Notes: generated from the sequence alone by a model not told the origin. 64,000 bases of DNA from Lacibacter cauensis (GCF_007830055.1 NZ_VLLE01000004.1:89248-153247); one strand, 5' to 3'. Positions 4,201-62,091 are shown, counted from the stretch's first letter. A program made the numbers and translations.

Positions 4201-4349
4201 TCGGCAATTAAAGTAATTCTTGGAAATAATACTTCGGGAAAAAGATTGGTTTGCATTTGGGTATAAGAAAATATACCTGCTGCCAAAAGCAGTAAACCAA
4301 TAAATAGAATTGGCTTTTTGAAGATTTGGAAAATGTTTTGTTTGCTCAT
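1242..4349 (-). CDS. Efflux RND transporter permease, CusA/CzcA (heavy-metal) family
   Basis: 1035 aa with 12-TM architecture, two large periplasmic loops and typical CzcA/AcrB-family conservation. Its start overlaps the upstream MFP gene by 4 nt (ATGA). Confidence 0.85.
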   Translation of the reverse strand: MSKQNIFQIFKKPILFIGLLLLAAGIFSYTQMQTNLFPEVLFPRITLIADAGQQPIDRMMITVTKPLESAAKKVKGVKVVKSSTSRGSCVIDIFFDWGSDIYNAKTQVESRINEIKNFLPQGVSIAAEAMNQSTFPVYGFTLESKKHSLVALKDKANLIVRPMFSQVNGISNVVVRGGKNKEFVIVPDAIKMASLGITPNTIINVFNSNNYVLSNGAVEDFSRLYLSLTDTRVMDIEELENTIIKNDGTRLIKLKDIAKIELKEQVEFVVVNANGHDAVLIDLVKQPGINLIDFAKECESKAAEIQKQLPEGMVLKPYYNQSAFVGDSIHSVIKTIYEGLFLAIIVMIIFLRSWRASLVVMLTIPVTLAFTIFVLYLVGISINIMSLGAIAASIGLIIDDAIVIIEQIYRKHEDEPEKNRFSVVKEAIHELFPAMIGSSLATIVIHFPFRMMSGLAGSFFKELSDTMQLTMVTSFLVTWLLLPVFHIIIGFKQPKKTHHKTAEQSIRKLKWLTWFFNKPVFAFSLIIIFVLSAWFSFGKLETGFLPDLDEGTIVLDYFMPPGTSLKETDRVLREIEKIIIAHPDVETYSRRTGIRMAFSTVPQNFGDYSIQLKQHRTKTTVDVIDDLRKEISAKQPVLHISFGQRIADLLGDLMSTPSPIEVKFFGDDYTQLQNITKQAEEIIGNIQGIADIDNGLRIAGPSLVFTPNQELLNQYKISLLDFQTQLSAYTGGITLGINSNQPIPSPAQAAMTAGIQVGQIQEGEQMRRIVMRFADMNINDLEHIKRQLIFLPDGTTRPLTFFCDVKIVQGENEQRRENLKSCVVLTARLDNRDLGSAITEIQQQLNSKLPLPKGYSIAYGGAYSEQQQSFKELLLILIMATLLVFGVFMFLFKEWLLSLLLLFISIMGICGCIIALYLTNIPLNVSSYTGIIMIVGILAENAIFTVAQYRFNMQQTNNVDQSINYAIALRIRPKLMTAIGAILALMPLALGIGLGAQMQQPLAVAVIGGFVVGLPMLLLVFPSLMRLLYRNKQKY

Positions 4350-5281
4350 TTCGCTTTAAGGGTTGTGATTGATATTAAAGCGGTGTCGGGCAAACCGTAA
4401 TTTCCTTTGCTTACTATTTTATCGGTAATATTGAACTGTGGCGATAAAACTTCTATACGGTCTGAATTTTTATTGCCGACTGTAACAGGAATTTTAATTG
4501 CGGTGCTGTCGTTAATGAGTTTCATTACCCAAAACTCTTTCATCATTTCATCACTCAATACGCAGGATTTTGGCAACACTTGTTTTTTGTTTTGTGTGCC
4601 TTTGCTGATGCCTACTTTTACCATCATATTTTCAGGGAGAAATAAATTTTCATTGCACTTTGCTAAAATGGTTTGAGTTTGTGCGGTTACATTCATTGCT
4701 GTTAGTGCCTTTGTGAATGTTGCTGAATGCTGTGTGTTGTCGGGTAAAATAAGTGTGCAAGTGTTTCCTGTTTTTGTATAAGCAGTAAATTCATAAGGCA
4801 CATTTACCTGAAAAACTAAATCGTTGCTTTCGGCTATGGTGCAAAGTTGCGTTCCTTCTAACACATAGTCACCTGCTTGTTGTTTGTCTAATGTTGAAAT
4901 TATGCCCGTTGCTGATGCGGTAACTTTAATTATTCCAAAGTTTTTGAGTGTGCTGTCAACCTTTGAAACATCCGTTCCTAAAGCTCTGCTTTCCTTTGAT
5001 TGCAACACATACAACACATCGCCTTTGCTCACTTTATCGCCCAGTTTCACATTTACCTGCGTGATAAATGCCGGAATAGGAGCTGTAACCAAATTTCGTT
5101 TTAAGTAGATGGTTGTGCCAAACAAAGTCAGTTCATCGTTGATGGAACCGTTGCTGATTGAAACAACTTCAACTGGTGTTTTAGGTATTGTGTTTTGTTC
5201 CGTTTTTGTTTCTGTTTTACTTCCGCAGGAAGCTAAAACCAAAACCAAAGCGATTGAAAAGTATTTGCGTAGTTGTTTCAT
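4346..5281 (-). CDS. Efflux RND periplasmic adaptor (membrane fusion protein) lipoprotein
   Basis: 311 aa with a lipoprotein signal (LVLASCGS) and a beta-barrel/lipoyl-like MFP pattern. Position is between the TolC-like and RND genes, translationally coupled. Confidence 0.75.
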   Translation of the reverse strand: MKQLRKYFSIALVLVLASCGSKTETKTEQNTIPKTPVEVVSISNGSINDELTLFGTTIYLKRNLVTAPIPAFITQVNVKLGDKVSKGDVLYVLQSKESRALGTDVSKVDSTLKNFGIIKVTASATGIISTLDKQQAGDYVLEGTQLCTIAESNDLVFQVNVPYEFTAYTKTGNTCTLILPDNTQHSATFTKALTAMNVTAQTQTILAKCNENLFLPENMMVKVGISKGTQNKKQVLPKSCVLSDEMMKEFWVMKLINDSTAIKIPVTVGNKNSDRIEVLSPQFNITDKIVSKGNYGLPDTALISITTLKAK

Positions 5282-5297
5282 TTCTCTTTGTTGTTAT

Positions 5298-6575
5298 TTA
5301 CCAGTTCCAATAATTGTATGCGTTTATGAGTGATTGCTGTTGTGAAAAAAGCAAGGTATAATCCCGTTGAGCCGTTGCCATATTCTTCAACACCATCGTG
5401 TAATTGATTATAGATAGTTGTCCTGACAGGATTTCTTTTTTGTAACTATTCAGCAATACCTTATAATCTTTTAGTTGCTGTTCTGCAATGGAAATGCGGT
5501 CTGTATAAGATTGCAGTTCGGTTAATATTTTTGATTTGCGAACAGTGTTTTGAGTAATGAAATTGCTTTTGTAAAACGAAACCGATTGCTCCAAAACCTG
5601 TGTCTTATTTCTGTTGATTGACTTCTGATTTCCATCAAAAAAGTTGTAAGTAAAAGTTAATCCGGCACTAATGCCGAAGCGTTTGGGAATTGTTGGTGCA
5701 TAAACTGCATTCAGTCCGGTGTTTGCAAAAAGACTTACCTGCGGTTTATATTTTAGTTCAAATGCTTTTTGCTGTGCAATTAAATTCAAACTATCCAAAT
5801 GATATTTTTCCAAAAACATTGAATTAGAAACGGTGCTATTCAAAGTCAGATTAGTGTTTTGAAGTTGCACTAAAGCTGTGTCGTTAATTCCGCAAAGAAT
5901 GTTTAAGTCCATTAGATCTCTGCGGTAGGTGGCTTTGAAATTGGTTAGTTGAGCCAAATAATTTTGGTGTTCAATATTCAGCAGGGTAAGGTCGGATTGT
6001 TTGTAGATGCTGCTTTCCACTAACTTTTTCAACACATCTTTTTGGTCTTCCAGCAATTTTACCATTGCTTCTGCATAATCAGTTTGCTTATTGTCCTGCA
6101 AACACAAAATGTATTGGTCAGTTACAATTTTCTCAATATCGTGTTCGGTTAGTTTGCTGTTGTTCTGATTGATTTGAGAAGTAACTGTTAATTGCTCACT
6201 GGCTGTTTTGTAGCGTTGTCCGTTAAAAAGAGGTTGGGTAACATTGAGTAATGCCTGATATGTTCCTCCATTTGTTGCAGCAAAGTCATAACCGTAATAA
6301 TTGGTTGCTCCGTTTGAGTTTGGCTCAAATGAAGTTTTGTTATTGTCGGTTGAAATGATTGGTGAAAAAAGGTAATTGGCGGTTACGCCAATTTGTGGTT
6401 TGGTATAAAGGGCTTTCAGGCGTTCAGCATCTAACTGGTTTGCCTTACTTTGATTTTTGTTGTCGTTAATTAATGGGCTGTTTTGCTTGGCTGCTGTTGT
6501 GTAATAACTCAAATTGTTTTGTGCGAAACAAATATTGGTAGCTAAAAGCAGTAATGCAAGAATGAGTTTTTGCAT
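5298..6575 (-). CDS. TolC-family outer-membrane efflux protein
   Basis: Internal ATG (MQKLILALLLLATNICFAQ, signal peptide) gives ~425 aa with two coiled-coil/beta repeats typical of OMF proteins. The ORF-track start at 6665 lies inside the upstream gene and is an over-extension. Confidence 0.7.
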   Translation of the reverse strand: MQKLILALLLLATNICFAQNNLSYYTTAAKQNSPLINDNKNQSKANQLDAERLKALYTKPQIGVTANYLFSPIISTDNNKTSFEPNSNGATNYYGYDFAATNGGTYQALLNVTQPLFNGQRYKTASEQLTVTSQINQNNSKLTEHDIEKIVTDQYILCLQDNKQTDYAEAMVKLLEDQKDVLKKLVESSIYKQSDLTLLNIEHQNYLAQLTNFKATYRRDLMDLNILCGINDTALVQLQNTNLTLNSTVSNSMFLEKYHLDSLNLIAQQKAFELKYKPQVSLFANTGLNAVYAPTIPKRFGISAGLTFTYNFFDGNQKSINRNKTQVLEQSVSFYKSNFITQNTVRKSKILTELQSYTDRISIAEQQLKDYKVLLNSYKKEILSGQLSIINYTMVLKNMATAQRDYTLLFSQQQSLINAYNYWNW

Positions 6576-9507: not shown

Positions 9508-11619
9508 TTATAAAAACCAAAGACTTTCTCTTCCAAAGTCAGGCAGTTTGTCGTGTTGGAAATAGGGATAAATCTCTGCAACCATTTCAGGGTATTTGAT
9601 TGTAACTGGCAAACTTTGCTGATTGGTGCTTTTCCAATACATACGGCTGAACTGATAAACCTGGTCAATGAGTTGTTCAACTAAATTCATATCATCTAAC
9701 ATGCCTTCAACAGTTGATGACAAAGCAATCTTCACCGGAAAGTGATATTCCTTCTGTGCTGGTTTTGCCGTTGCATCGTAACGGGTATTATTGAACAACA
9801 AGTATTCTGATTTACCAACTTTTACAATTGTACCACTGTAAGGCATCAGGTTATTGCCGTCTTTTAAGTCAAAGCCTAAAAGTTCTTTGCTTTCTGTTTT
9901 ATTGATGGTTACAACGATTACAGGAATATTTAAGCCTAATGTATGCAGCGTTCTCAGGATGGGTTCTAATTCCTTTTTGCCAATGTCTTTATAGAAATGA
10001 ATAACAAGCCTTGAAGCTGTGTAATTAACTGCAATGAACTTTGCAACTGCTTCACGAATAGAACCTGCAAGACTTACAGTATCGTTGCCTTTAAAACAGT
10101 CAAAGCCTTTAAACATTCCCTCGTTATTAAAGCAAAATGCAGAGCCTACAAACCTTGTTTTTCTTGTTACTGAATAGAATGCTCCAACGCCAACAATCAG
10201 TTCGTTATTGGTTGGTCTGTTTAAACGCCACGGCACACCGCCCAACTTTGCCAGCATTGCGATTTCAATATGTGGCAGGAATGTATTGAAGTAAGAATTT
10301 GGCTTACCGTTTTTGTACAGGTGTTCGCTTTTGATTACCTGTGAAAGCACACCTTCATACAATAGTATTTCTTTGATTTTATAATAGATGTTCTTCCTTG
10401 CTTCGTCTTTCTCTAATTTGGGAACCGGATTAACAAACAAAGCCATGTATTGAGTATCGGGAAGCCATTCTGCATTTTTCACAGCATTTTTCACTGCTGT
10501 AACTGCATTTTGTACTGTATCAAACTCAACGTTCTTTGAAATATCTAACTCAAAAGGAACTTTGATGTAGTCCTGCATCTTGGGGAATGGAAATCTATCA
10601 TCTTTCCAACCACTGTTCAGATACTTATATAACTCGGTAACTGCACCTGCTTTGTCTGACTGCTGATAAATGAAAAAGAATTTGAAATTGCTTGGCTTTT
10701 GTGGCAACTGGTAAGGACCTTTTGACTTAAAATCTTTCTTGGGTTCTTTCCCTGTTCTATTGCCTGAATAAAGCAGGTCATTTGATGTAGAACTAATGAC
10801 CCGATACTGCTCTGCAATTGGCTTATAAAAACCATTTGAACTGATTGGAATTAAGTTGCGGAAAGTATCGTTATCAAAATACTTGGTGTAAAAGTCTTGC
10901 AATACATTGAGGTATCTCGGATAGCGGTTTGTTAAATTTGGTACATCGTGGGCAATCTCTAAATGTGGTTTGATGTCATTACTCAATACAGGAAAGCACT
11001 TATCAGGCATATTGATTACTTCCTGCGGTCTAAACTTCCATTTGTATAAGATGCCATTGCAAACTATCCAATTGTAAAGGTTAGTATTGAAGTTGTAAAT
11101 CTCTGAAACAGGTTTAGCAAAAACTTTTGTCGTGCCGTCATAAGACAAAACTATTTCGGGTTTATCTGTAACCCTTGCATGTTGCACCTTTACAGTAAAC
11201 TGGTTGTACACATTGTATTTTGCATTGCTTTTATCCTTGTCGTGAAACCATACTTCTGTTTCGCTGGTGAAATTCTGATGGATAATGTCAGCAATGCCCA
11301 TGAAATAATCCCGAATGAGAAAACGGTAATAATGATTTGCGAACCTGTAAGAAACAGATAAGTCAATCTCCAGTTCTATTGCACCCTCTTTGGCTGGTTG
11401 AAAATCTGTGTACAGTTTGTTTAACTCTAACAGTTCTAATGCAGAAAGTTTATCATCAAGAAGCCCTTGCAAATCATCTTTGAACACCGGGTAATAATCA
11501 GCCTGTTTCTGCTTATAAAAAGCAAATTTCTGTTTCCCTTTAGGTGGGTCAAATGGAATGATGTTTAAGAGTAATTCTTGCTGCATAAAGTTTAAATATT
11601 TTCTAAACGGGTTATCCAA
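9508..11619 (-). CDS. Long prokaryotic Argonaute (pAgo), predicted catalytically inactive (long-B type)
   Basis: 703 aa. The MID-domain 5'-phosphate pocket pattern is conserved: YYKIK ... GVLSQVIK ... NTFLPHIEIAMLAKLGGVPWRL, matching the hAgo2 VYAEVK...GMATQCVQ...LKINVKLGGVN pattern (Y/K/Q/K). In the PIWI domain, the first catalytic Asp is replaced (IVGVGAFYS versus iGADVTH) and the last His/Asp is replaced (VYQFSRMYW), so the DEDX tetrad is incomplete. An alternative start at ATG 11586 would remove the 28-nt overlap with the upstream gene. Confidence 0.65.
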   Translation of the reverse strand: MDNPFRKYLNFMQQELLLNIIPFDPPKGKQKFAFYKQKQADYYPVFKDDLQGLLDDKLSALELLELNKLYTDFQPAKEGAIELEIDLSVSYRFANHYYRFLIRDYFMGIADIIHQNFTSETEVWFHDKDKSNAKYNVYNQFTVKVQHARVTDKPEIVLSYDGTTKVFAKPVSEIYNFNTNLYNWIVCNGILYKWKFRPQEVINMPDKCFPVLSNDIKPHLEIAHDVPNLTNRYPRYLNVLQDFYTKYFDNDTFRNLIPISSNGFYKPIAEQYRVISSTSNDLLYSGNRTGKEPKKDFKSKGPYQLPQKPSNFKFFFIYQQSDKAGAVTELYKYLNSGWKDDRFPFPKMQDYIKVPFELDISKNVEFDTVQNAVTAVKNAVKNAEWLPDTQYMALFVNPVPKLEKDEARKNIYYKIKEILLYEGVLSQVIKSEHLYKNGKPNSYFNTFLPHIEIAMLAKLGGVPWRLNRPTNNELIVGVGAFYSVTRKTRFVGSAFCFNNEGMFKGFDCFKGNDTVSLAGSIREAVAKFIAVNYTASRLVIHFYKDIGKKELEPILRTLHTLGLNIPVIVVTINKTESKELLGFDLKDGNNLMPYSGTIVKVGKSEYLLFNNTRYDATAKPAQKEYHFPVKIALSSTVEGMLDDMNLVEQLIDQVYQFSRMYWKSTNQQSLPVTIKYPEMVAEIYPYFQHDKLPDFGRESLWFL

Positions 11620-52426: not shown

Positions 52427-52701
52427 GTTATTACAGTTTGGTTGTGAACAATAAACAGTATGCTGCACAGTTGCAGTGCTGTTCCGTTTTCTACTTCATG
52501 AAAAACAAAAGTTCATTGATCTGTGTCGGCCGACTTGATAGTGAAACGTTTGTTTATAAACCAGTAATTAAAAAGTACTGTTTGCTATTTAGATGCGTTG
52601 CAGAAATAAATCCACAAACATAGTCACCGCTTGATTTAGGAAGAACCTGCAAGCGGAAACATTCAACCCAAAACTTGTTACACTCATTTATCTTTGCGGC
52701 C

Positions 52702-53178
52702 ATGCGTATTTTGATGGTTTGTTTGGGAAATATTTGTCGCAGTCCGTTGGCAGAAGGAATACTGCAGCAGAAAGCGGGAACAGCAGGTTTGGAATGGCGT
52801 GTGGAAAGTGCCGGAACCGGTGGTTGGCATACCGGAGAACCTCCGCATCATTTAAGTACCAAAGTGGCAAAACTGAATGGTGTTGACATCAGCAACCAAC
52901 GTGCACGACAATTTGTAAAAGAAGATTTTCTAAACTACGATTTCATTTATGTAATGGACAGCAGCAACTATGTTGATGTAAAACACATGAGCGGAACGTT
53001 ATGGAACGAAGCAAAAATAGATCTGCTGTTAAACGAATTATACCCGGGTGAAAACAGAGCCGTTCCCGATCCCTGGTATGGAAAAGAAGATGGCTATCAT
53101 CAAGTGTACGAACTAATCGATGCAGCATGCGACAGGATCATACAGAAGCATACACAGGAAGTACGAGCTACGAAGTAA
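52702..53178 (+). CDS. Low-molecular-weight protein-tyrosine phosphatase
   Basis: MRILMVCLGNICRSP (CX5R P-loop) and a DP motif (VPDPWYG). Confidence 0.85.
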   Translation: MRILMVCLGNICRSPLAEGILQQKAGTAGLEWRVESAGTGGWHTGEPPHHLSTKVAKLNGVDISNQRARQFVKEDFLNYDFIYVMDSSNYVDVKHMSGTLWNEAKIDLLLNELYPGENRAVPDPWYGKEDGYHQVYELIDAACDRIIQKHTQEVRATK

Positions 53179-53219
53179 GGAAAACAAGAAACGATAAACA
53201 ATAAACTATAAACTGAGCA

Positions 53220-54644
53220 ATGGCGAAGGTGAACGTATCATTACCACAGGGAACAAGAGATTTTGGAGCAGAAGTTGTACGCAAACGCAACTATATTTTT
53301 TCAACCATTAAATCGGTATTTGAAGTATACGGGTTTGAGCCATTGGAAACACCTGCCATGGAAAACCTTGATACGTTGATGGGCAAGTATGGCGAAGAAG
53401 GTGATAAGCTGATTTTTAAAATACTGAATAACGGAGAGTATTTGAACGGACTGAGGCCTGAAGACTTTTTTGGGATCGCCTTAGGTAGTTTGAAAAATAT
53501 TCCAACAACCGAAGAAGTATATTTATCAACTGAAGATTTTAAGAAAAAGTATTCCAGAATTACAAATCACGTTTCAAGCCGTGCATTAAAATACGATCTT
53601 ACTATTCCGTTTGCACGTTATGTAGCCATGAACCATCATCAACTCACCATGCCATTCAAACGCTACCAGGTGCAGCCGGTTTGGAGAGCAGATCGTCCGC
53701 AAAAAGGACGTTACCGTGAATTTTACCAATGCGATGCAGATGTGGTGGGCAGCAAATCGTTGTTGAACGAAGTGGAACTCACGAATATTTATGCAACTGT
53801 ATTCAGCAAGCTGGGCGTAAGTGTAGATATTAAAATCAACAGTCGTAAAATTTTGGCTGCATTGGCCGAAATATGTGGCGGTGCCGATAAGATGGTAGAT
53901 ATCACCATTGCTATTGACAAACTGGATAAGATCGGCATTGAAAAAGTAAAAGAAGAACTGGCGCAGCGTGGATTAAATACTGAGCAGATCAGCATCATCG
54001 AAAACTATCTCAACATTACCGGCAGCAACGAAGAAAAGCTTGCAGCCATTAAACAACTGTTGAGCAGTAATGAAACAGGTGCCAAAGGAATTGAAGAAAT
54101 TGAAACTGTTTATCGCCAATCGGGCATCAGTAATTTACAATTCGACTTTACGCTGGCACGTGGTCTCAACTATTATACAGGCGTTATTTTCGAGGTAAAA
54201 GCCAACAATGTACAAATGGGAAGCATCGGAGGCGGTGGCCGCTACGATGATCTGACCGGTTTATTTGGTGTTCCGAATATTCCCGGAGTTGGCATTTCGT
54301 TTGGTGTAGACCGTATTTACGATGTAATGGAAGAGTTACAACTTTTTCCGGCAAGCGTACATACAGGTACCAAAATATTATTCTTCAACTTAGGTGATGC
54401 AGAAAGCAAAAAAGCATTTGAGCTGATGCAGGCGTTACGCAGCAAAGGAGTGGCAGCAGAACTTTACCACGAAAACAGCAAATTCGACAAACAATTTAAA
54501 TACGCAGAAAAAAAACAGATACCGTTTATTGTTATCATCGGCACCAAGGAACTCGAAAGCAGTAGCTGCAATGTAAAAGAACTGGCAACTGGCCAACAGG
54601 AAACCTGCAACTTCGATGACCTGCTGAAAAAATTCATCAGCTGA
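53220..54644 (+). CDS. hisS: Histidine--tRNA ligase
   Basis: 474 aa class-II aaRS with HisRS motifs (GTRDF, ..YQVQPVWRADRPQKGRYREFYQCDAD.., GGGRYD) and a C-terminal anticodon-binding domain. Confidence 0.9.
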   Translation: MAKVNVSLPQGTRDFGAEVVRKRNYIFSTIKSVFEVYGFEPLETPAMENLDTLMGKYGEEGDKLIFKILNNGEYLNGLRPEDFFGIALGSLKNIPTTEEVYLSTEDFKKKYSRITNHVSSRALKYDLTIPFARYVAMNHHQLTMPFKRYQVQPVWRADRPQKGRYREFYQCDADVVGSKSLLNEVELTNIYATVFSKLGVSVDIKINSRKILAALAEICGGADKMVDITIAIDKLDKIGIEKVKEELAQRGLNTEQISIIENYLNITGSNEEKLAAIKQLLSSNETGAKGIEEIETVYRQSGISNLQFDFTLARGLNYYTGVIFEVKANNVQMGSIGGGGRYDDLTGLFGVPNIPGVGISFGVDRIYDVMEELQLFPASVHTGTKILFFNLGDAESKKAFELMQALRSKGVAAELYHENSKFDKQFKYAEKKQIPFIVIIGTKELESSSCNVKELATGQQETCNFDDLLKKFIS

Positions 54645-54733: not shown

Positions 54734-54822
54734 CGGTGAGGTGGATGAGTGGCTGAAATCAGTAGTTTGCTAAACTGCCGTACGGGTAACTCTGTACCGC
54801 GGGTTCGAATCCCGCCCTCACC
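54734..54822 (+). tRNA. tRNA-Ser (anticodon GCU), type II with a long variable arm
   Basis: Acceptor GGTGAGG/CCTCACC, anticodon stem GTAGT/ACTGC with loop TTGCTAA, variable arm CGTACGGGTAACTCTGTACCG, T-arm CGGGTTCGAATCCCG, discriminator G. CCA is not encoded. Confidence 0.8.
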
Positions 54823-54824
54823 GC
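54801..54824 (+). repeat. attL: 24-bp direct repeat (GGTTCGAATCCCGCCCTCACCGCA) formed by the tRNA-Ser 3' end
   Basis: An identical 24-mer is found at 62036-62059. Confidence 0.85.
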
Positions 54825-54878
54825 ACTACTACAAGAGCAATTAACTGCAAATCAGTTAGTTGCTTTCTTGTTTTTATG

Positions 54879-54902
54879 AGGTGGTGCATTTCGTGGTGCA
54901 GT
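54879..54902. repeat. Two GTGGTGCA(G/T)TT direct repeats next to attL (candidate integrase arm-type sites)
   Basis: The same 11-12-mer recurs at 55761-55774, 61907-61918 and 61919-61934. Confidence 0.6.
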
Positions 54903-54982
54903 TCCAGCCCTTTACTTTCTATTTTGTACAGTTTTTAAATGAATTACTTTTATCCTGCCATATCAACTATGGCGCTTTTAAC

Positions 54983-55300
54983 TTACCGGCTCCCGTTTAT
55001 ACGGGGGCTTTTTGTTACATTTCTGTAATCGACGAAAGCAGTTACAACCAGTACAACAGCCCAGACCACATCAACAACATTCCAAAGGGTTCGGCCTAAT
55101 GCCAACTTGATAAATGGGTTAATCAACAAAGCTGACGAACCCCATAGGACGGCAAGCCCGGTAATTTTGCGATCTTGAAAAGCAAGCACAGCAAAACCCA
55201 CCATACCCAAAAATCGAACTAGTTCGTAATAGCCGTAAGGCATGTTTAACAGGCATACAGCAAACAATACGGCTAGGGCTATTTTAATTAGTGTCTTCAT
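54983..55300 (-). CDS. Small 3-TM membrane protein (element-encoded)
   Basis: Internal ATG MKTLIKIALAVLFAV.. gives ~105 aa. The coordinates are listed 5'->3' on the minus strand, so the CDS occupies 54983-55300. Confidence 0.35.
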   Translation of the reverse strand: MKTLIKIALAVLFAVCLLNMPYGYYELVRFLGMVGFAVLAFQDRKITGLAVLWGSSALLINPFIKLALGRTLWNVVDVVWAVVLVVTAFVDYRNVTKSPRINGSR

Positions 55301-55760
55301 CTTTCTTAAATAGGCGTTGTGGCACAACGCAATTACTGATACCAAAAACAAACCCAGTCATTACCAATAATTCAATTATTATCCATAGGTTATAACGTTC
55401 GGGTGTTGTCCAAATGATGTAAGTTAAAAATGCAGAGTTTATAAATGCTAATATCGAAGAACCTATGTAAGTAACAGGATTAACAGGCACTTTCCTGAAT
55501 ACTATCGATATAACCAATAGTATAATCGACTTAATCAGATTTAAAATGAATGAGAAAAAAGCTAATCCACCTAATAATAACAGTAATAGTTTCCAGATCA
55601 ATTTCAGACTATTGAACCAATTAAAAACATCACTGGCAAAAGCATCCCAAAAGTAAAATATCAAATTATTAAGAAGGGCTAAAATTAAGGCGGCTAATAC
55701 AAGATAGCCCCATGAGTACAAAGGATTGCTTTGTGTTTCCTGAAATGACTGATTAGGCAT
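55284..55760 (-). CDS. Small 4-TM membrane protein (element-encoded)
   Basis: 158 aa. The start codon abuts a GTGGTGCAGTT repeat. Confidence 0.4.
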   Translation of the reverse strand: MPNQSFQETQSNPLYSWGYLVLAALILALLNNLIFYFWDAFASDVFNWFNSLKLIWKLLLLLLGGLAFFSFILNLIKSIILLVISIVFRKVPVNPVTYIGSSILAFINSAFLTYIIWTTPERYNLWIIIELLVMTGFVFGISNCVVPQRLFKKDEDTN

Positions 55761-55824
55761 GTGGTGCAGTTTTTGGGTTGCCCTAACAAGATATAAAATT
55801 CATCCAGTCTTGCAACACCCACAA

Positions 55825-55851
55825 CAAAAAACCCGACCTGTTAAGTCGGGC
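55825..55851 (-). terminator. Rho-independent terminator (minus strand) after the 134-aa gene
   Basis: Minus-strand reading gives CCCGAC-ttaacag-GTCGGG followed by TTTTTT (plus-strand 55825-55850: aaaaaaCCCGACctgttaaGTCGGG). Confidence 0.6.
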
Positions 55852-56091
55852 TGTGTGTGAATGTAGCGGGCTATTATACGCTTCAGTGCTGGGTTGCTAT
55901 ACTTGCTCAGGTGATTTCTCGAATAAAGGCTGACAAATCTGGTCAATCGTCTTTAATCGAGATGAAGCGATTAGAAAAATCAGTGAAAGACTATGAGTCT
56001 TTTTTGTGATTGCTAATTGTGCTTTTTTCTTGTAGCGAGTGTTCTTTTTCATAACTGGTATTGATAGTTAAACAATGTTTTCGACTGCTTT

Positions 56092-56496
56092 TTAGTTTGA
56101 TCTCTCATCTGTCATTTGTAAACTCCTTTGCATCATAATTTTTGAATACGCAAGCGCACCGTTTAAAACTTCCTCATCCGTTCTTAACTCTACATCATGT
56201 TTACTCACATGTTCAACACGCTTGTTTATTAAAACAAGCTGCTGCAGCATTTCTACATTGAAATAAAGCCCGTTTTGTATCTCATTTCTTATTCCGGCAT
56301 TGTATCGCTCTTCGGGCAACTGATCCGCAATTGCACGGATCTGGCTTATAAAGTGGTTAACAATCTCTGTGATCGGGTACATGTCAAACAAACTTTGTGA
56401 TGCCTCGTAATTGTTGACTAATGCAGTAAGTAAGTCTTGATCTTCCTGGCTTCTTGTCTTTGCAAATTCTTGTAACAGTTGATTAATTCGTGTCAT
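56092..56496 (-). CDS. Hypothetical helical protein (element-encoded)
   Basis: 134 aa with no secure motif. An R-x6-H (RVEHVSKH) is reminiscent of HEPN but is weak. Confidence 0.35.
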   Translation of the reverse strand: MTRINQLLQEFAKTRSQEDQDLLTALVNNYEASQSLFDMYPITEIVNHFISQIRAIADQLPEERYNAGIRNEIQNGLYFNVEMLQQLVLINKRVEHVSKHDVELRTDEEVLNGALAYSKIMMQRSLQMTDERSN

Positions 56497-56798
56497 AGTG
56501 TTTTATTTATTTGAGGCCTAACTTATAGTAAATGCCCTGCTCCTGCAATAGCGAATCAAATTGACTCCACGTACAAACGGGGTAACCCTGTACCCTTTAT
56601 GACACTTTATTTGTAATGTGATAAATACTCGGATATTTTTTACTGATTATCAACCCTCTCATTTTTGCAACATCATTGTAAAAATACTTTCATCTTTTTT
56701 CGAGGGGAGTTAAAATGACTCCCTGTTTTTGGCCTGTTTGCACATGAAAAAAATGGTACTTCGCTATACAGAGGGGGTCTATCATCCACAGTACCGGG

Positions 56799-57218
56799 TT
56801 AATTTTTGAGGGGAACGGGCTTTTTTGAAACCGGGCGGGTCGGCTTTCGTTTAGATTGCTTTTTCAATTTCGTTTTACCTACTGCCTTGTCAATTTCTGT
56901 TAGCAGATTAAAGCCGCTGATCGTCGGCCGGTACTTCTTTGTTTTACCGAATTGCTCCACGAAAACAAGTTCATGCTTTAGCAGGGAATCAATGTTTTTC
57001 CTCAGCTGCGTTCTGCTGTTTGTGTTGCCCATTGCCTCCGCTATCATAGTTGCAGTGCAGCCAAAGTGCGACTGTCTTTCGCTTATTACAAGTAGGATCT
57101 TTACTGCTGACAGGTTAAACGTTAAGTCGTCACGCTCCTTTATCTGTTTGAAAGCCTGTGTTAAGTTCAAGGCTCTTTTTAAGTGTATGTATTGCATTTG
57201 CTGAATTGCTTTGTGCAA
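56799..57218 (-). CDS. Winged-helix (MarR-like) DNA-binding protein with a basic C-terminal tail
   Basis: 139 aa with a wHTH core and a KK/R-rich tail. Confidence 0.4.
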   Translation of the reverse strand: MHKAIQQMQYIHLKRALNLTQAFKQIKERDDLTFNLSAVKILLVISERQSHFGCTATMIAEAMGNTNSRTQLRKNIDSLLKHELVFVEQFGKTKKYRPTISGFNLLTEIDKAVGKTKLKKQSKRKPTRPVSKKPVPLKN

Positions 57219-57262
57219 GGTTTTCCGATTATAATTAGATAGGAAAACCGTGCATTTGTAAT

Positions 57263-58135
57263 TTATGAGCAGGCCAACTGTTGAAGCGCTTGCCCTGCAA
57301 GATTTACTATTTGTTCCTTATGCTTATTCGTTCCGTACTGGTTTACTATACGTTCAAACTCTCTCTCCTTTCTATAGTCTGTTGATGTTTTACAATTCCT
57401 GTACACCCATACATTCGGATTCTGCATTATCTCAAACAATCTCTTTTCCTTCTCGGTCATGCTTTCTATGCTGATTGTATGATCTGTAAAAACTAAATCT
57501 GTTGCATCTTGCACGGTTTTCCGACCTAATGTAAACAGCACCTTATCGCAGGTTAAATCAAACAGGCTTTTTGCTCCTTGTACTATCAATTCCCTTGATC
57601 GCATGTACTTCGTTTCAAATCTCAGCGTGTTTGTAGTGCTGTATTGCCTGCCTTTGTCATACAACTTGATAAACTTGTCACCACTTGCAAACTCAATGAA
57701 ATAAAATGCCTCATTTTCTTTCTCATAAGGCCATGCGGGTCTTGTGTTGCGATAGCAGATACACTGATCTATTATTTCACTGGCTGCAAGCGCCGGGTGA
57801 ATATTAAAACCAACCTCCAGGTTCTTAATGAGTGCAAGCATTGGGTTTAATCTTAGCAGGCTGCACATGTGCCTAATAGCATCCTGCACATCGGAGAAAG
57901 TAAACTGTTTGTGGTTAGTGCCTTGCCAATACTTATGCAGTGAACCTGCAATTTGTAAGCGTGTCTTAGAAAACTGAGTTAGTTGAAACACACCCCATTC
58001 ACAAACCATTTTATCAACGTGCAGCACTTCCCCCGTTTTTGGGTCATGTTCTTGCCTCCATTGCAGGAAAGGAAGTGCTGTCGTTGTTTCGATTTGCGCC
58101 CGATCTTCTACCCATAATTTCATGTAGTCGATCAT
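57263..58135 (-). CDS. Hypothetical protein, possibly a replication-initiation-type protein of the element
   Basis: 290 aa with no confident motif. It follows the small wHTH gene 58141-58437 (98 aa). Confidence 0.3.
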   Translation of the reverse strand: MIDYMKLWVEDRAQIETTTALPFLQWRQEHDPKTGEVLHVDKMVCEWGVFQLTQFSKTRLQIAGSLHKYWQGTNHKQFTFSDVQDAIRHMCSLLRLNPMLALIKNLEVGFNIHPALAASEIIDQCICYRNTRPAWPYEKENEAFYFIEFASGDKFIKLYDKGRQYSTTNTLRFETKYMRSRELIVQGAKSLFDLTCDKVLFTLGRKTVQDATDLVFTDHTISIESMTEKEKRLFEIMQNPNVWVYRNCKTSTDYRKEREFERIVNQYGTNKHKEQIVNLAGQALQQLACS

Positions 58136-58140
58136 GTGTA

Positions 58141-58437
58141 CTATTGAGCAAATAAAACTGATTGAGTAAGCGCCGGGAATAATCCGGGATCTGTTGTAAA
58201 CTCGGTTGCTGTTTTCTTTGTGATTTTACATTCACGCTTATTGAGTGCAGCAATCAGTTTTGCTTTTCGTAATGTGGCAACATACCTGCAAATATTCGCT
58301 CTATCAATGCCTGTTCTTACCTCAATTTCTTTCATTGTTGCAGGCTCAATCTGCCATGCTTCAAAAACCTTTTGCAACTGTACTTTGTATTTTGGCTCGC
58401 CGTCATAATTGGCGAGTAATTCGGTAATTTCGCTCAT
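58141..58437 (-). CDS. Small HTH DNA-binding protein
   Basis: 98 aa with a ..MKEIEVRTGIDRANICRYV.. HTH. Confidence 0.4.
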   Translation of the reverse strand: MSEITELLANYDGEPKYKVQLQKVFEAWQIEPATMKEIEVRTGIDRANICRYVATLRKAKLIAALNKRECKITKKTATEFTTDPGLFPALTQSVLFAQ

Positions 58438-58504
58438 CTTATTCTCTTTACATTTTACTAATAGGCAAGCATTACGGGCTTGCCTGTTTTATTTCCTGCC
58501 TGTG

Positions 58505-59314
58505 TTATGGCCTGCCGTAAATCGTGGGCGTGTAGTTCGCCTGTGGGGGCGTAAACCAACTAACAGACGGAGAGAAACGGCGGCCGTAAATATTGCCCGT
58601 TCCTTGTGGTGCCGTGTTCAATGGTGAACCAATGTTTGCAGGATTAAAGCTGCTCATTGGATTAGCTGATACCGGCTGCAAAGTCTGTTGTGGTTGCTTA
58701 TTAAAACCGCCATTGCCCGCAAACTGCAGAACTGTATTTGCAATTGATGTAACGCCGTTGCTAATGCTCTCTGAAACGTTCGCCCTGTTTTGCTCTGCTG
58801 AATTTAGCAGCCCCTGTTTGTAGTTAAAGTCACGGTCAAACTTTCTCAATTGATCACCGTAAATTTTATCGTTTTCGCCTGTCATTACTTGCAATGCGTT
58901 GTTCAAATTGCCCAACATGCTTGTGCGATATTGAGCCTCCTGCACGGCAAGGTTGTTCAGTGCATTCTCTGTATTGTTTTGCACTGCACCGGCGGCGGCT
59001 ATCAACTGCTGAGGATTTGCAGCCCTTGCAAGATTCATCATTGAGTTTGCTTGACTGCGGTATAGGTTATTCTCCTGTGTCGCTGCTCCTGGCATCCTTG
59101 CATTTAAACTTTGTCTTGCTGTATCAAGTTGCTCCTGTGCAAACGGGCTTGTTTGGTACGTCGGATCAATTGGATTGATTGCGTTCGCTTGTTCCTGTTG
59201 ATTTTTGGATAAAGCGTTTTGTCTTATTGCACTTGCTGCGTGCTTACCCCACACCGGAAAAAACGAAACGTAGTTCGCCCAGCGGTTGGCGTTGCGTGTT
59301 CTTAAATCTCCCAT
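58505..59314 (-). CDS. Gln/Asn/Ala-rich low-complexity protein (element-encoded)
   Basis: 269 aa with strongly biased N/Q/A/S composition and no TM. Confidence 0.4.
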   Translation of the reverse strand: MGDLRTRNANRWANYVSFFPVWGKHAASAIRQNALSKNQQEQANAINPIDPTYQTSPFAQEQLDTARQSLNARMPGAATQENNLYRSQANSMMNLARAANPQQLIAAAGAVQNNTENALNNLAVQEAQYRTSMLGNLNNALQVMTGENDKIYGDQLRKFDRDFNYKQGLLNSAEQNRANVSESISNGVTSIANTVLQFAGNGGFNKQPQQTLQPVSANPMSSFNPANIGSPLNTAPQGTGNIYGRRFSPSVSWFTPPQANYTPTIYGRP

Positions 59315-59580
59315 TACGCTACCCTCCTGTTTTCAAGTGAAGAAACAACAGAGTGCCAATTGTAACGAACGTTTGAACCGATACGAAAACAAGGTATAGC
59401 ACCTTTCTTTTCCCATCGAATTGCTGTTGGTTCGGTAATTGCTAAACGTTTGCATAATTCTGCACGATCAATAATCTCAACTTGTGCAGCGGTGGGAAGC
59501 GTTGGAGTTTCTTTAAGGATGGCTTTTACTTCGCCAATCTCTGAAAGTATCGCTTCAAATGGATTGTTCATAAAATTCAT
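59314..59580 (-). CDS. Excisionase-type HTH protein
   Basis: The likely start is the internal ATG MNFMNNPFEAI.. The C-terminal is AELCKRLAITEPTAIRWEKKGAIPCFRIGSNVRY (MerR/Xis-like HTH). The track ORF extends to 59655. Confidence 0.5.
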   Translation of the reverse strand: MNFMNNPFEAILSEIGEVKAILKETPTLPTAAQVEIIDRAELCKRLAITEPTAIRWEKKGAIPCFRIGSNVRYNWHSVVSSLENRRVA

Positions 59581-59664
59581 TTTTGTTATTGCACTATTGC
59601 AGAACAAAAATGAATCTGGTTTTAGGTCATACTGGGGTGCACTGGGGGTGCACAATTTTTTTTA

Positions 59665-60501
59665 CTATAAGTCAGGGAAGCTGTTGTTAAGTCTTGTGTA
59701 TTCAAGTTCAACAGCTTTAAATGCAATTAAATTACTATCTCTGAACTCTTCAAGTAATAATTCATAGACTTTTTTAAATTCTAACACTTGAAGTTCATAC
59801 TCAGGATCGTATAAATATCCTCGATTTTTCAATTTTGAATGATAGTTCCGTATTGTGGTTTGCGATATTTCATACTTTCTTGCAATTCCCTGCACTTGTT
59901 TTGGGTTAAGTGCTTCACACCCACCCTCGTAGAATTTTTTAAGCAGCCAGTATAACTTTGTTTTACCGCCGGTAGCTTCGAAAGATACAGTTTCCTCTTT
60001 CCCATACTTTTTTAAATATTCAAACAACATTGCAAAATTTCCACCTTCCACAACATAACTAAGCGCTTCAAACGTTTTCTCGTCTTCGTCCTTCAATTCG
60101 CACATTCTTAAACCTTGATAGCTACTGCTCACATCTGATAAGTATTTTGCATTTCTAATTGAAGCAGCAAGGTTAAACCTTGCATTTTTAAATTCCGGAT
60201 TATTGATAAGGTCGTAAATGCGTGTTTCAGGGTGCCCAATTTGTAAATGAAATCCTATTCTTAACAAGTCTGCCACTTCGCCCATTTTCGCAAACATTCC
60301 CGTGGCTTTTCCTTCCAAAAAAAACAAATTAAACTCTTGAATTTTAGCTGTTATGTAATGTTCTTTCAGCGGCGCCCGTCCTATTTGTTTTTGGAACTGA
60401 ATTTTGTATAAACTCAGAGTGAAGCCCCACTGCTTAACAATATCACAAAACAAATCTTTTTTACTTATGCCGCTTCTTTTTAATAACTCCAACAGATTCA
60501 T
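59665..60501 (-). CDS. Hypothetical protein with a C-terminal HTH (element regulatory/partner protein)
   Basis: ATG MNLLELLKRSG.. The track start at 60528 is GTG. The protein is ~278 aa with a ..QVQGIARKYEISQTTIRNYHSKL.. HTH. Confidence 0.4.
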   Translation of the reverse strand: MNLLELLKRSGISKKDLFCDIVKQWGFTLSLYKIQFQKQIGRAPLKEHYITAKIQEFNLFFLEGKATGMFAKMGEVADLLRIGFHLQIGHPETRIYDLINNPEFKNARFNLAASIRNAKYLSDVSSSYQGLRMCELKDEDEKTFEALSYVVEGGNFAMLFEYLKKYGKEETVSFEATGGKTKLYWLLKKFYEGGCEALNPKQVQGIARKYEISQTTIRNYHSKLKNRGYLYDPEYELQVLEFKKVYELLLEEFRDSNLIAFKAVELEYTRLNNSFPDL

Positions 60502-60502
60502 C

Positions 60503-61861
60503 TTATACGGCTTTAAGTTTAAACTCACTCAAATCTGCATCCCATGCTTTCAGCATCACCGTCTTTTTTAGCTGGCTTGTTACATTCACGTATCTTTTAA
60601 AACTCTTGTAATCCTTCCAGCCTCCAATAGCCATGACCTGTTCAGCACTCATTCCCTTTTCAAGTGATAATGTTGCAAACGTCTTTCTTCCGGTATGGCT
60701 TCCCACTAAATCATATTTGGGATAAATATTAACTATGCGCTTTGCTCCTTGAAACCTTACAATTTCAATAGGCTCAGCAATTCCTGCACGTTTGCATAGT
60801 TGCTTTACATACTCATTCATCTTTTGGTTACTGATAACAGGCAATGGCTTTAGCTGCTGTTCATACTTGGCTAAAATTACCCGTGAATAATTAGTAAGGG
60901 GAATGGTAAGGGGCTGTTTGGTTTTGGTTACTGTTAATCTTATTTCATCGTGCTTTATGTGTTCACGCTTCAATTGTGCAAGGTCGCTGTAACGTAACCC
61001 TGTTGTGCATCCAAAGCAAAAAACGTCACGAACCTGGGCTAACTTTTTGTTGTTGGAAAGGTCGAGTCGAAAGAGGGTTTCAAATTCATTGCTTGTTAAT
61101 GCAATTACTTCCATAGGTTCACGCTTGATTGTGAAATCTTTGTACTTATCGCTTACCTGCACACCGTTCTTTTTGGCATAGTTCAAAAATGTTTTAATGG
61201 TGCTTAGCTGCTTTGAAGCTGTCGAATTTGTTAATGGAATGCGTTGCACGGTTTCCCCCTTTCTGTTCGTAGTTGTCCCTGTGGGTGAAATCAGAAAGGA
61301 TTGAAAGGATTGAAAAAATGAATAATCAATTTTATCGAATGTAATTTTTCGCCTTGTATGCTTTTGAAAGTCCTGTAAATGCCTTTTTAACGATCTGTAT
61401 GTTTGTAGGCTTCCTTCCTCTCTTGTGGTTGTATGCTCATTAATGTACTTGTCAATGAAATCAAAAAGGAATGTGCTGCTTTCGTCTTTTTTCGTTACAG
61501 GCTGTTTCAATTCTGTGTATTTGGCGGCAACCATGTCGGCCGAATACACAACCCCGTCAAATTCAAACCGCTGCTCAATTGCCTCCAAATCGCTTTTAAT
61601 GGCTAAAAGTCGTTTGTTTATTTCTTTCGATTCCTTGTCGGTTAGAAACTGGTCGTACCCAATTAGGGGGGCGGCTTTCTTTGCTGCCTTTTTTTCAATG
61701 TAAATTGTTCGCTGCTCTTTACTATCCCAGCAATACGGCAGCACCATTATGCCGGTAGGAATGCTTTTGCGTTGCCCTTTGATTTGGTAGATTAAGCGAA
61801 TAGGAGATTTACTATTGGTGTACTTCGCTTCTCTGCGAAGTTCAAAACGGATTGTACCCAT
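60503..61861 (-). CDS. Site-specific tyrosine integrase (Bacteroidetes type with N-terminal arm-binding domain)
   Basis: 452 aa with ..GLRYSDLAQL.., ..VGSHTGRKTFATL.. and ..WKDYKSFKRYVNV.. (R/H/R/Y catalytic pattern). Confidence 0.85.
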   Translation of the reverse strand: MGTIRFELRREAKYTNSKSPIRLIYQIKGQRKSIPTGIMVLPYCWDSKEQRTIYIEKKAAKKAAPLIGYDQFLTDKESKEINKRLLAIKSDLEAIEQRFEFDGVVYSADMVAAKYTELKQPVTKKDESSTFLFDFIDKYINEHTTTREEGSLQTYRSLKRHLQDFQKHTRRKITFDKIDYSFFQSFQSFLISPTGTTTNRKGETVQRIPLTNSTASKQLSTIKTFLNYAKKNGVQVSDKYKDFTIKREPMEVIALTSNEFETLFRLDLSNNKKLAQVRDVFCFGCTTGLRYSDLAQLKREHIKHDEIRLTVTKTKQPLTIPLTNYSRVILAKYEQQLKPLPVISNQKMNEYVKQLCKRAGIAEPIEIVRFQGAKRIVNIYPKYDLVGSHTGRKTFATLSLEKGMSAEQVMAIGGWKDYKSFKRYVNVTSQLKKTVMLKAWDADLSEFKLKAV

Positions 61862-61906
61862 ATCATTTGCTTTTAACTTACCGTGAAGGTAATAAAAAAC
61901 AATGCT

Positions 61907-61934
61907 GTGGTGCAGTTTGTGGTGCAGTTTTTTT
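61907..61934. repeat. Tandem GTGGTGCAGTTT ×2 adjacent to the integrase start/attR
   Basis: Sequence ctGTGGTGCAGTTTGTGGTGCAGTTTTTTT. Confidence 0.6.
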
Positions 61935-62035
61935 AATAACCTGTTTTAGTTTCATTTTGCGTTAACTGATAAATCCCTTTGTTACCAGTCGTTTCCCATA
62001 CCGAAAGCTAAATGCAATTTAATCAAATTTTCAAA

Positions 62036-62059
62036 GGTTCGAATCCCGCCCTCACCGCA
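62036..62059 (+). repeat. attR: second copy of the 24-bp tRNA-Ser 3'-end repeat
   Basis: Identical to 54801-54824. Confidence 0.85.
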
Positions 62060-62062
62060 TAA

Positions 62063-62091
62063 AAACCATCGTTTAAAGCGATGGTTTTTTG
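62063..62091 (+). terminator. Rho-independent terminator (likely the original tRNA-Ser terminator displaced by the insertion)
   Basis: Sequence ACCATCG-tttaaag-CGATGGT followed by TTTTTT. Confidence 0.7.

Follow-up and report, generated by a model that had tools for sequence, protein, structure and literature searches.

In the 64,000-nucleotide (nt) stretch of the Lacibacter cauensis (Chitinophagaceae) genome analysed here, hereafter the window (GCF_007830055.1 NZ_VLLE01000004.1:89248-153247), a small integrative element lies at the 3' end of a tRNA-Ser(GCU) gene. ARAGORN identified this tRNA, with anticodon GCT, as the only one in the 64-kb window, and Rfam agreed with the call, placing tRNA-Ser at 54735-54823 with 54.5 bits. 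The 3' end of the gene is rebuilt by a direct repeat of 24 bp, GGTTCGAATCCCGCCCTCACCGCA, and the tRNA is intact according to both programs. The repeat occurs exactly twice in the window, with 24 of 24 bp matching between the copies that form the attL and attR cores (Table 1); no chance copy with up to 3 mismatches appeared in 100 shuffles of the sequence, and none is expected. Because similarity ends at once on either side of both copies, the unit of the element is 7,234 bp. The hairpin and T-run that once served as the terminator-like structure of the tRNA now lie behind attR, and the element has supplied a terminator-like hairpin of its own downstream of the tRNA. The predicted junctions are …TTTTCAAA-24mer-CTACTACAAG… for attP and tRNA-24mer-TAAAAACCATCG for attB; a search of Joint Genome Institute (JGI) metagenomes for the exact attB pattern gave no match.

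Just inside both ends we found tandem arm-type repeats that are putative integrase binding sites, with the consensus GTGGTGCA(G/T)TT at 54881/54893 and 61907/61919. Exact copies of GTGGTGCAGTT begin at 54893, 55761, 61907 and 61919, and a copy with one mismatch, GTGGTGCATTT, begins at 54881, all on the same strand. When up to one mismatch is allowed, 5 of the 6 matches in the window fall inside the element, and 1.44 would be expected for the whole 64 kb. The internal copy sits just past the terminator of the core operon. It might mark where the element once ended, before the two-gene cargo was joined on beyond it; alternatively, it might link cargo expression to binding of the integrase.

The first-pass annotation of this DNA had proposed an integrative element in tRNA-Ser(GCU), a proposal that is borne out by the integrase gene adjoining attR, the rebuilt tRNA 3' end, the arm-type repeats and the existence of relatives at other tRNAs. 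It had also placed the second 24-mer copy correctly and recognised that the original tRNA terminator is retained behind it, whereas the first copy had been put at 54801-54824, one base off. The arm motif had been said to occur twice near each end and once internally, which holds for the right end and for the internal copy, and for the left end only if one mismatch is allowed. By its sequence, the element has the full set of hallmarks of a tRNA-targeting, tyrosine-recombinase integrative element, and its mobility is indirectly supported by sister elements at tRNA-Glu, tRNA-Ser(GGA), tRNA-Phe and tRNA-Leu.

The element contains ten closely packed genes, all on the minus strand (Table 1), whose products include IQ13_2198, IQ13_2200 and IQ13_2202 as exact matches. 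The integrase (Int) has the domains Arm-DNA-bind_5 (PF17293, E=2e-5), SAM_5 (PF13102, E=1e-18) and Phage_integrase (PF00589, E=5e-14) and matches phrog_1 in PHROG (E=2e-31). The stop codon of the excisionase-like gene (xis) overlaps the start codon of the gene for a Q/N-rich protein (QN) in the sequence TAATG. Three sister elements also carry QN (L008; L009/L010/L011; L001/L002), and all of them have in common the order Int, p~300, Xis, QN, winged helix-turn-helix (wHTH) protein, (Rep), p139 and p134. Homologues of p139, which has a weak match to CARF-HTH proteins, were found in L008, L009, L010, L001 and L031, a Lacibacter metagenome-assembled genome, and homologues of p134 with 51-52% identity in L008, L009 and L010. 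At the tRNA-proximal end, the two membrane proteins form accessory cargo that can be swapped: their place is taken by a Panacea antitoxin module in L009 and by a PBECR3 nuclease in L001. The DUF6804 protein, with approximately 2 to 3 hydrophobic segments, has a homologue in L001, and for the 158-aa protein no homologue was found.

No element protein contains a Walker A motif, and neither the inventory of open reading frames (ORFs) nor scans with Pfam, PHROG, PADLOC and NCBIfam revealed a capsid, terminase, ATPase, relaxase-accessory or coupling-protein gene in the element; the PADLOC defence models and NCBIfam gave only generic helix-turn-helix (HTH) matches. The element thus resembles satellites in general in having its own predicted functions for integration, excision and replication and no capsid or packaging machinery. 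All the genes listed in the first-pass annotation (two membrane proteins, several HTH proteins, a Q/N-rich protein and a 290-aa possible Rep) were recovered, and for the Rep the predicted structure, with the catalytic-domain fold of Rep_trans proteins, lends support to the assignment. Its description of the cargo as entirely uncharacterised needs revision, in that QN is a member of a family known from the tail/cargo module of crAss-like phages.

Table 1. Features of the integrative element and its insertion site (window coordinates).
Feature	Position	Strand	Basis or remark
Intact tRNA-Ser(GCU), integration target	54735-54824	+	ARAGORN
attL core, 24-bp direct repeat making up the 3' end of the tRNA	54802-54825	+	exact repeat
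Terminator-like hairpin supplied by the element, now downstream of the tRNA	54834-54866	+	14-pair stem and T-rich tail
Left tandem arm-type repeats	54881-54903	+	GTGGTGCATTT, GTGGTGCAGTT
DUF6804 membrane protein, 122 aa, variable distal cargo	54983-55351	-	Pfam PF20619, E=3e-26
Membrane protein, 158 aa, variable distal cargo	55284-55760	-	approximately 4 hydrophobic segments
Internal copy of arm-type motif	55761-55771	+	abuts start codon of the 158-aa membrane protein gene
Terminator-like hairpin closing the core operon ahead of the cargo genes	55830-55852	-	
p134, conserved core protein, 134 aa	56092-56496	-	
Second copy of conserved 19-mer	56137-56155	-	
p139, conserved core protein, 139 aa	56799-57218	-	weakly winged-helix-like
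Palindrome, candidate double-strand origin	57214-57254	-	TGCACGGTTTTCC-15 nt-GGAAAACCTTGCA, 13-bp arms, just past rep stop codon
Rep, predicted Rep_trans-fold rolling-circle initiator/nickase, 290 aa	57263-58135	-	
wHTH, predicted winged-helix (MarR_2-like) DNA-binding protein, 98 aa	58141-58437	-	always upstream of rep
Hairpin and conserved 19-mer between QN and wHTH genes	58452-58488	-	same motif in the same place in L008, L009, L010, L011
QN, Q/N-rich protein, 269 aa	58505-59314	-	helical
Xis-like, HTH_17 excisionase-like protein, 113 aa	59314-59655	-	Pfam HTH_17 and PHROG excisionase
p287, 287 aa (annotated as 278 aa)	59665-60528	-	weak C-terminal HTH
Int, tyrosine integrase, 452 aa	60503-61861	-	N-terminal arm-binding domain; adjoins attR
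Right tandem arm-type repeats	61907-61929	+	GTGGTGCAGTT x2
attR core, second 24-bp copy	62036-62059	+	exact repeat
Original terminator-like hairpin of the tRNA and T-run	62061-62089	+	13 pairs, after the attR copy

The gene that connects the element to phages is that of QN. We detected 20 homologues of this protein among 5.8 billion proteins and recovered the genomic context of 10 of them, of which 3 are in the sister elements and 7 in phage contigs (L004-7, L012-13, L014-15, L016, L098, L099 and L100). Outside the three sister elements, the homologues of QN are confined to crAss-like phages, with 22 distinct contigs of up to 74 kb, 9 from Logan/ENA and 13 from IMG/VR, and all 13 IMG/VR matches are phage contigs. 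The matching phages come from the sequencing runs SRR28123324-28, ERR12387302/09 and SRR27907435, and elements from SRR25752787, SRR17641701-03 and ERR14847260/61. A scan of the contigs of reference genomes with the QN alignment gave no match, and a metagenome scan gave only 6 distant, phage-like matches. In 21 of the 22 phage contigs the QN gene is directly 3' of the gene for a muzzle protein of 1,130 to 1,160 aa, within a conserved module with the order GroES, 222-aa protein, 212-aa protein, ring-like 248-aa protein, muzzle, QN, a protein of approximately 500 aa and a giant protein. The muzzle was identified through precomputed Pfam matches to crAss_MUZ or crAss_MUZ_C in L012, L014, L098 and L099; the protein upstream of QN in L005 is a muzzle orthologue (49-56% identical) that on its own misses E<=0.01 against Pfam, and in L100 the protein before QN is a partial one of 952 aa, presumably the muzzle.

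In the crAss-like phage PhicrAss001, gp45 (cargo protein C1) comes next after the muzzle gene gp44, ahead of gp46 (C2) and of the subunits of the virion RNA polymerase (PMC10172136); the tail barrel is filled by the N-terminal approximately 245 residues of gp45, which are believed to be the first to be ejected (PMC10172136). The order gp43, gp44 (muzzle), gp45 (C1), gp46 (C2), gp47 matches the neighbourhood of QN in the phages, and because QN directly follows the muzzle gene there, it occupies the C1 slot. QN also resembles gp45 in that its length of 240 to 270 aa is close to that of the barrel-filling N-terminal part, and in that phage QN, as gp45 does, precedes a protein of approximately 500 aa and giant proteins. 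An AlphaFold model of QN (predicted local distance difference test score, pLDDT, 61) is all-helical up to residue ~198 and disordered thereafter, and in this predicted all-helical fold with a disordered tail QN is similar to podovirus ejection or internal virion proteins; no transmembrane segment was predicted. Foldseek matches of the model were weak and comprised internal virion proteins, a DNA transfer protein and proteins of crAss-like phages; they count as hints only because of the low confidence of the model. In addition, QN had a weak PHROG match to a microvirus DNA pilot protein (E=0.0096), and a profile search of the PDB with QN was empty. We also considered gp46, to which homology of QN is likewise undetectable. 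Altogether, these data suggest that QN is likely an ejection or cargo protein.

Two of the phage contigs show that this part of the genome also varies from phage to phage. When L016 (10001-12533) was compared with L005 (7815-8544), the ring and muzzle proteins were 94-98% identical (98.5% for the muzzle protein), and QN and the next protein were 55% and 64% identical, respectively; behind QN, L016 contains an insertion of two reverse-strand genes. Among the phages themselves, the cargo-slot locus is a hot spot of recombination or diversification.

The element and phage versions of QN do not form separate groups. Over residues 1-204, QN of the window is 76% identical to the protein of phage L004-7, and it is 60%, 51% and 51% identical to the copies in the elements L008, L009 and L001, respectively. 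When the conserved region was used for a neighbour-joining tree, copies from elements and from phages were interspersed, with three element-phage sister pairs (window and phage L004-7, L008 and phage L100, L009 and phage L014-15). At the DNA level, the similarity between element and phage begins at the QN start codon, stops near codon 198 and amounts to 72%; outside QN, neither tblastn nor blastn detected an element match in the phage fragments fetched. These sequences point to at least three exchanges of QN with phages. Its nonsynonymous divergence (pN, 0.16-0.31) is far below the saturated synonymous divergence (pS, ~0.8), with a pN/pS ratio of about 0.2-0.4, which indicates that QN is under purifying selection in both elements and phages and that the transfers are not recent. 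The gene is intact in four independent elements.

The second protein that informs the biology of the element is Rep. Its AlphaFold2 model, built from a 50-sequence alignment, reached a pLDDT of 95 and shows the predicted catalytic-domain fold of Rep_trans proteins; its structural matches in BFVD are Inoviridae G2P proteins. Residues D3, E107, K157-x-Y159-x-K161 and R172-x-E174 are invariant in the 50 sequences. In RepDE, the active site combines the metal ligands D46, D142 and E214 with R212 and the catalytic Y191, which has R189 and K193 on its two sides (PMC4797284). The Rep pattern runs parallel to this arrangement (K157/Y159/K161 to R189/Y191/K193, R172/E174 to R212/E214, E107 to D142 and D3 to D46, as matched by pattern and not by superposition), and the set of catalytic residues is apparently complete. 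Window Rep does not match Pfam PF02486, and among the 50 family members one does (E=0.008), so that this Rep constitutes a remote, unnamed branch of the superfamily. Its similarity to Rep_trans initiators such as RepC/RepD of pT181-family plasmids and RepSTK1 falls below Pfam detection, and the same lack of a PF02486 match sets it apart from the MobT relaxases of Tn916, ICEBs1, ICESt3 and small streptococcal elements, which belong to the same superfamily. A PDB profile search with Rep gave no match, and Pfam gave a weak match to Phage_CRI (E=0.084). While a word-indexed search returned 3 relatives of Rep, an exhaustive hidden Markov model search returned 2,742 clusters at 50% identity. Three diverse members of the family had no match among 72,556 PLSDB plasmids, and this Rep is thus not known from autonomous plasmids.

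The palindrome just past the rep stop codon is a candidate for the origin that Rep would nick. Folding it as DNA gave -9.8 kcal/mol (z -4.6), significantly better than shuffled sequences, its 41 nt are identical in L008, the closest relative, and a third copy of the palindrome arm lies within rep at 57510-57522. L107 (MT835707.1) also encodes, at 5011-6183, a distant member of the Rep family (26% identity, E=2e-4), near a tRNA-Asn and large ORFs. This record, a 28-kb scaffold from human faeces labelled 'UNVERIFIED Bacteriophage sp.', is not a concatemer, and it was the sole match among 50,697 phage records of the Rep of L034, the one family member searched.

The relatives of the element fall into a small group with QN and a large group without it. 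L008, the closest to the window element (Int 82% and Rep 88% identical), duplicates 28 bp of a tRNA 3' end, and each of its ends bears the TGCACCAC arm motif seen in the window. In L009, the repeat measures 16 bp and lies at tRNA-Glu, and the arm motif, again repeated at both ends, is a different one. In L009 (11173-12376) and L010 (3821-5024), two unrelated proteins of 170 and 232 aa occupy the Rep slot, which is a swapped replication or initiation module. In L031, Int is 71% identical to that of the window and xis is followed directly by the wHTH and rep genes, with no QN. A Rep alignment scan of 185,579 species genomes yielded 67 loci in Chitinophagales, Sphingobacteriales, Cytophagales, Flavobacteriales and Bacteroidales, nearly all of them with a tyrosine integrase gene 1 to 4 kb upstream of rep on the same strand and approximately 60 of the 67 with an HTH_17 protein just before rep. 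Of the 9 loci checked, 6 have a distal tRNA gene (Ser-GGA, Phe or Leu) in opposite orientation, with element sizes of ~4.7-8 kb, and this geometry matches that of the window element. Judged by these 67 reference-genome loci, the Rep family seems to occur only in integrated elements of Bacteroidota. Among 117 downstream proteins surveyed with Pfam there were scattered defence genes and no relaxase, coupling protein or capsid gene. Two arrangements deviate from the common one: L086 (Marinifilum flexuosum) has two Rep-family genes approximately 6.5 kb apart (3250-4500 and 9788-11239), which may be tandem elements at one site, and in L066, L090 and L093 (Flavobacteriia) the best integrase match is just downstream of rep, an alternative arrangement of the backbone.

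A further conserved feature of the QN-bearing elements is a 19-mer, GCTTGC(C/G)TATTnnAAAAT, found twice per element, just 5' of the wHTH gene and at the 3' end of the p134 gene (56137-56155 and 58452-58470 on the minus strand in the window; 10755 and 13065 in L008; 10767 and 13550 in L009; 3415 and 6198 in L010; 1109 in L011). It is kept although the element proteins are only ~50% identical, including in the lineage with a different replication module, and it is not present in the phage fragments. Possible roles of the 19-mer are those of a promoter or of an operator to which the conserved wHTH protein binds. Outside the element, the genes upstream of the tRNA (52675-54644) are ordinary housekeeping genes; they include an ORF with the motif CLGNICRSP, which we take to be a low-molecular-weight phosphotyrosine phosphatase-like protein, and a 474-aa ORF whose sequence reads as that of a presumed histidyl-tRNA synthetase. 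Likewise unrelated to the element is a fluoride riboswitch (crcB motif; 47.8 bits against Rfam) at 588-653 on the minus strand.

The reading that we favour, which we regard as plausible and somewhat short of probable, is that of a minimalist rolling-circle, satellite-like integrative element tied to crAss-like phages, on which it would depend or which it would target. Infection by such a phage would induce the Int-p287-Xis-QN operon, in which QN is translationally coupled to xis, a coupling that places QN expression at induction. The element would then excise, and Rep would nick the hairpin origin (candidate, 57214-57254), so that rolling-circle replication would yield concatemers. These would be packaged in helper capsids, where ~10 units of 7.2 kb would fill a 74-kb head or ~14 a 103-kb head. 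The element-encoded tail-barrel or ejection ('cargo') protein would enter the particles, where it might either secure delivery of the element or spoil the helper virions.

Several observations weigh against this reading. Excision, replication and encapsidation are steps that we infer from sequence, and the only link to phages in these data is the one gene, QN, that the element has in common with crAss-like phages. Homology of QN to PhicrAss001 gp45 is undetectable (hhalign probability 0.5), and the assignment of a cargo role to QN therefore rests on its position, its size and weak fold hints; moreover, neither phage nor element QN proteins match crAss_CARG1, the portal-binding domain, which gp45 itself matches at 2e-66. 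The element has no small terminase or capsid-remodelling gene, and no pac-like sequence is common to the element and the available phage fragments. Rep, wHTH, p134 and p287 have no close relative in the IMG/VR viral contigs. In the Rep slot of L009 and L010, the two proteins have no Pfam match and no profile similarity to Rep. Finally, QN is present in 0 of the 67 Rep-family loci of reference genomes; it is therefore an accessory of one subgroup, limited to a small Chitinophagaceae-type set of Int-Xis-Rep elements, and not a hallmark of the family.

The main rival, which we consider rather unlikely, is an integrative mobilizable element (IME) in which Rep would be a MobT-type relaxase and maintenance replicase, the element would be moved by a resident conjugative element and QN would act as an anti-phage decoy. 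There is precedent for such a relaxase, since Rep_trans/MobT proteins are the relaxases of integrative and conjugative elements and of many small streptococcal IMEs integrated in tRNA or ribosomal genes (PMC5704250). The Int-Xis-Rep backbone is widespread and mostly lacks the phage gene, the distal end of the relatives holds defence-like cargo (SocA_Panacea, PBECR3, restriction or ABC-3C genes), and no gene of the element other than QN is seen in viral contigs, all of which suits a mobilizable element. However, MobT has been described for Firmicutes with TcpA/FA-type machinery and not for Bacteroidota (PMC5704250), and the 117 neighbouring proteins include no coupling protein, origin-of-transfer (oriT) accessory protein or canonical relaxase. 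QN itself lies in the xis-coupled core operon, outside the cargo hot spot, and its repeated exchange of alleles with phages fits the matching of a helper at least equally well. As a decoy, QN would poison the tail assembly of crAss-like phages or block their ejection channel and thereby protect the host. This rival is compatible with the satellite reading, because satellites often interfere with their helpers via structural mimics.

A passive replicon and a prophage remnant are less likely than either a satellite or a mobilizable element. An integrated cryptic rolling-circle replicon, or 'integrative plasmid', with no helper-dependent transfer and a passively captured QN would account for an element that carries Rep, Int/Xis and little else, has no DNA in common with phages outside QN and, as its saturated synonymous sites show, captured the gene long ago. 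We consider it improbable in view of the intact QN under purifying selection in four independent elements, its swapping with phages at least 3 times, its constant position and coupling to xis, and the failure of three diverse Rep members to match any of the 72,556 plasmids. A decayed prophage of a crAss-like phage, microvirus or inovirus is more improbable by far: the weak matches of QN to the microvirus pilot protein and of Rep to Phage_CRI, together with the Inoviridae G2P matches in BFVD, point in that direction, whereas the att sites are intact, a major capsid protein, a Zot-like ATPase and a Walker A motif are missing, the compact gene order is constant in independent elements at different tRNAs and a single gene is in common with crAss-like phages. 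As specific candidates, we rejected a microvirus prophage, for which there was no capsid gene and no tblastn match among the 50,697 phage records, and an inovirus or inovirus satellite, for which there was no Zot-like ATPase or Walker A motif; the sole phage link is to the tailed crAss-like phages.

The satellite-like reading has a broader form, which we put forward as doubtful: these would be the first satellites of crAss-like phages, with a strategy new for any satellite, namely an own allele of the tail-barrel/ejection cargo protein that is repeatedly swapped with helper lineages, and the large Int-Xis-Rep family (>2,700 Rep clusters) might constitute the main class of 'hitchers' in Bacteroidota that depend on a phage or helper. 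With a cargo allele swapped with helpers, the step hijacked or sabotaged would therefore be protein ejection and not capsid remodelling or terminase redirection. crAss-like phages rank with the most abundant of known phages. Through the element, their cargo/ejection proteins, which are poorly understood, can be approached genetically; it is also a candidate for a natural antagonist or passenger of these phages in a culturable host, Lacibacter cauensis, and gives access to a large family of rolling-circle mini-elements, so far uncharacterised, that are integrated in tRNAs across Bacteroidota. If the element is transferred in phage particles, the 'minimalist satellite' concept would reach a new phylum and a new helper order.

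Known satellites carry characteristic marker genes: a Stl-type repressor, pri-rep and terS/ppi/cpm in phage-inducible chromosomal islands (PICIs), alpha, sid, psu and delta in P4, and AlpA and a primase in PICMIs (the phage-inducible, minimalist chromosomal islands). None of the PICI, P4-like, PICI-like element (PLE) or PICMI marker domains was detected in the Pfam, PHROG, NCBIfam and PADLOC scans of the element. A full-text literature search returned no title or abstract describing a satellite of crAss-like phages or of Bacteroidota, and as far as this search showed, the combination of Bacteroidota and a crAss-like helper is new for described satellites. New here are the assignment of the predicted Rep_trans fold, the large unnamed family of Bacteroidota mini-elements and the link to crAss-like phages.

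The closest known systems are VEIMEs (integrative mobile elements that are encapsidated in virions), which are described as capsid-less satellites packaged as concatemers (PMC9618062), and the PICMIs of Vibrionaceae, which use virulent phages as helpers, integrate next to fis and are described as having a core of only three proteins, for excision and replication (PMC10803314). The window element differs from PICMIs in residing in a tRNA gene. VEIMEs are defined by their presence in virions, whereas the window element is known here as a sequence. The passages on VEIMEs and PICMIs considered here make no mention of a helper ejection or cargo-slot protein, the likely identity of QN. As these passages describe them, VEIMEs and PICMIs nevertheless resemble the window element in being small and in combining an integrase, an excisionase or AlpA-type HTH protein, a replication initiator of their own and variable defence-like cargo (PMC9618062, PMC10803314), and they likewise have no capsid or capsid-remodelling genes, packaging of their concatemers in full-size helper capsids having been proposed or shown there.

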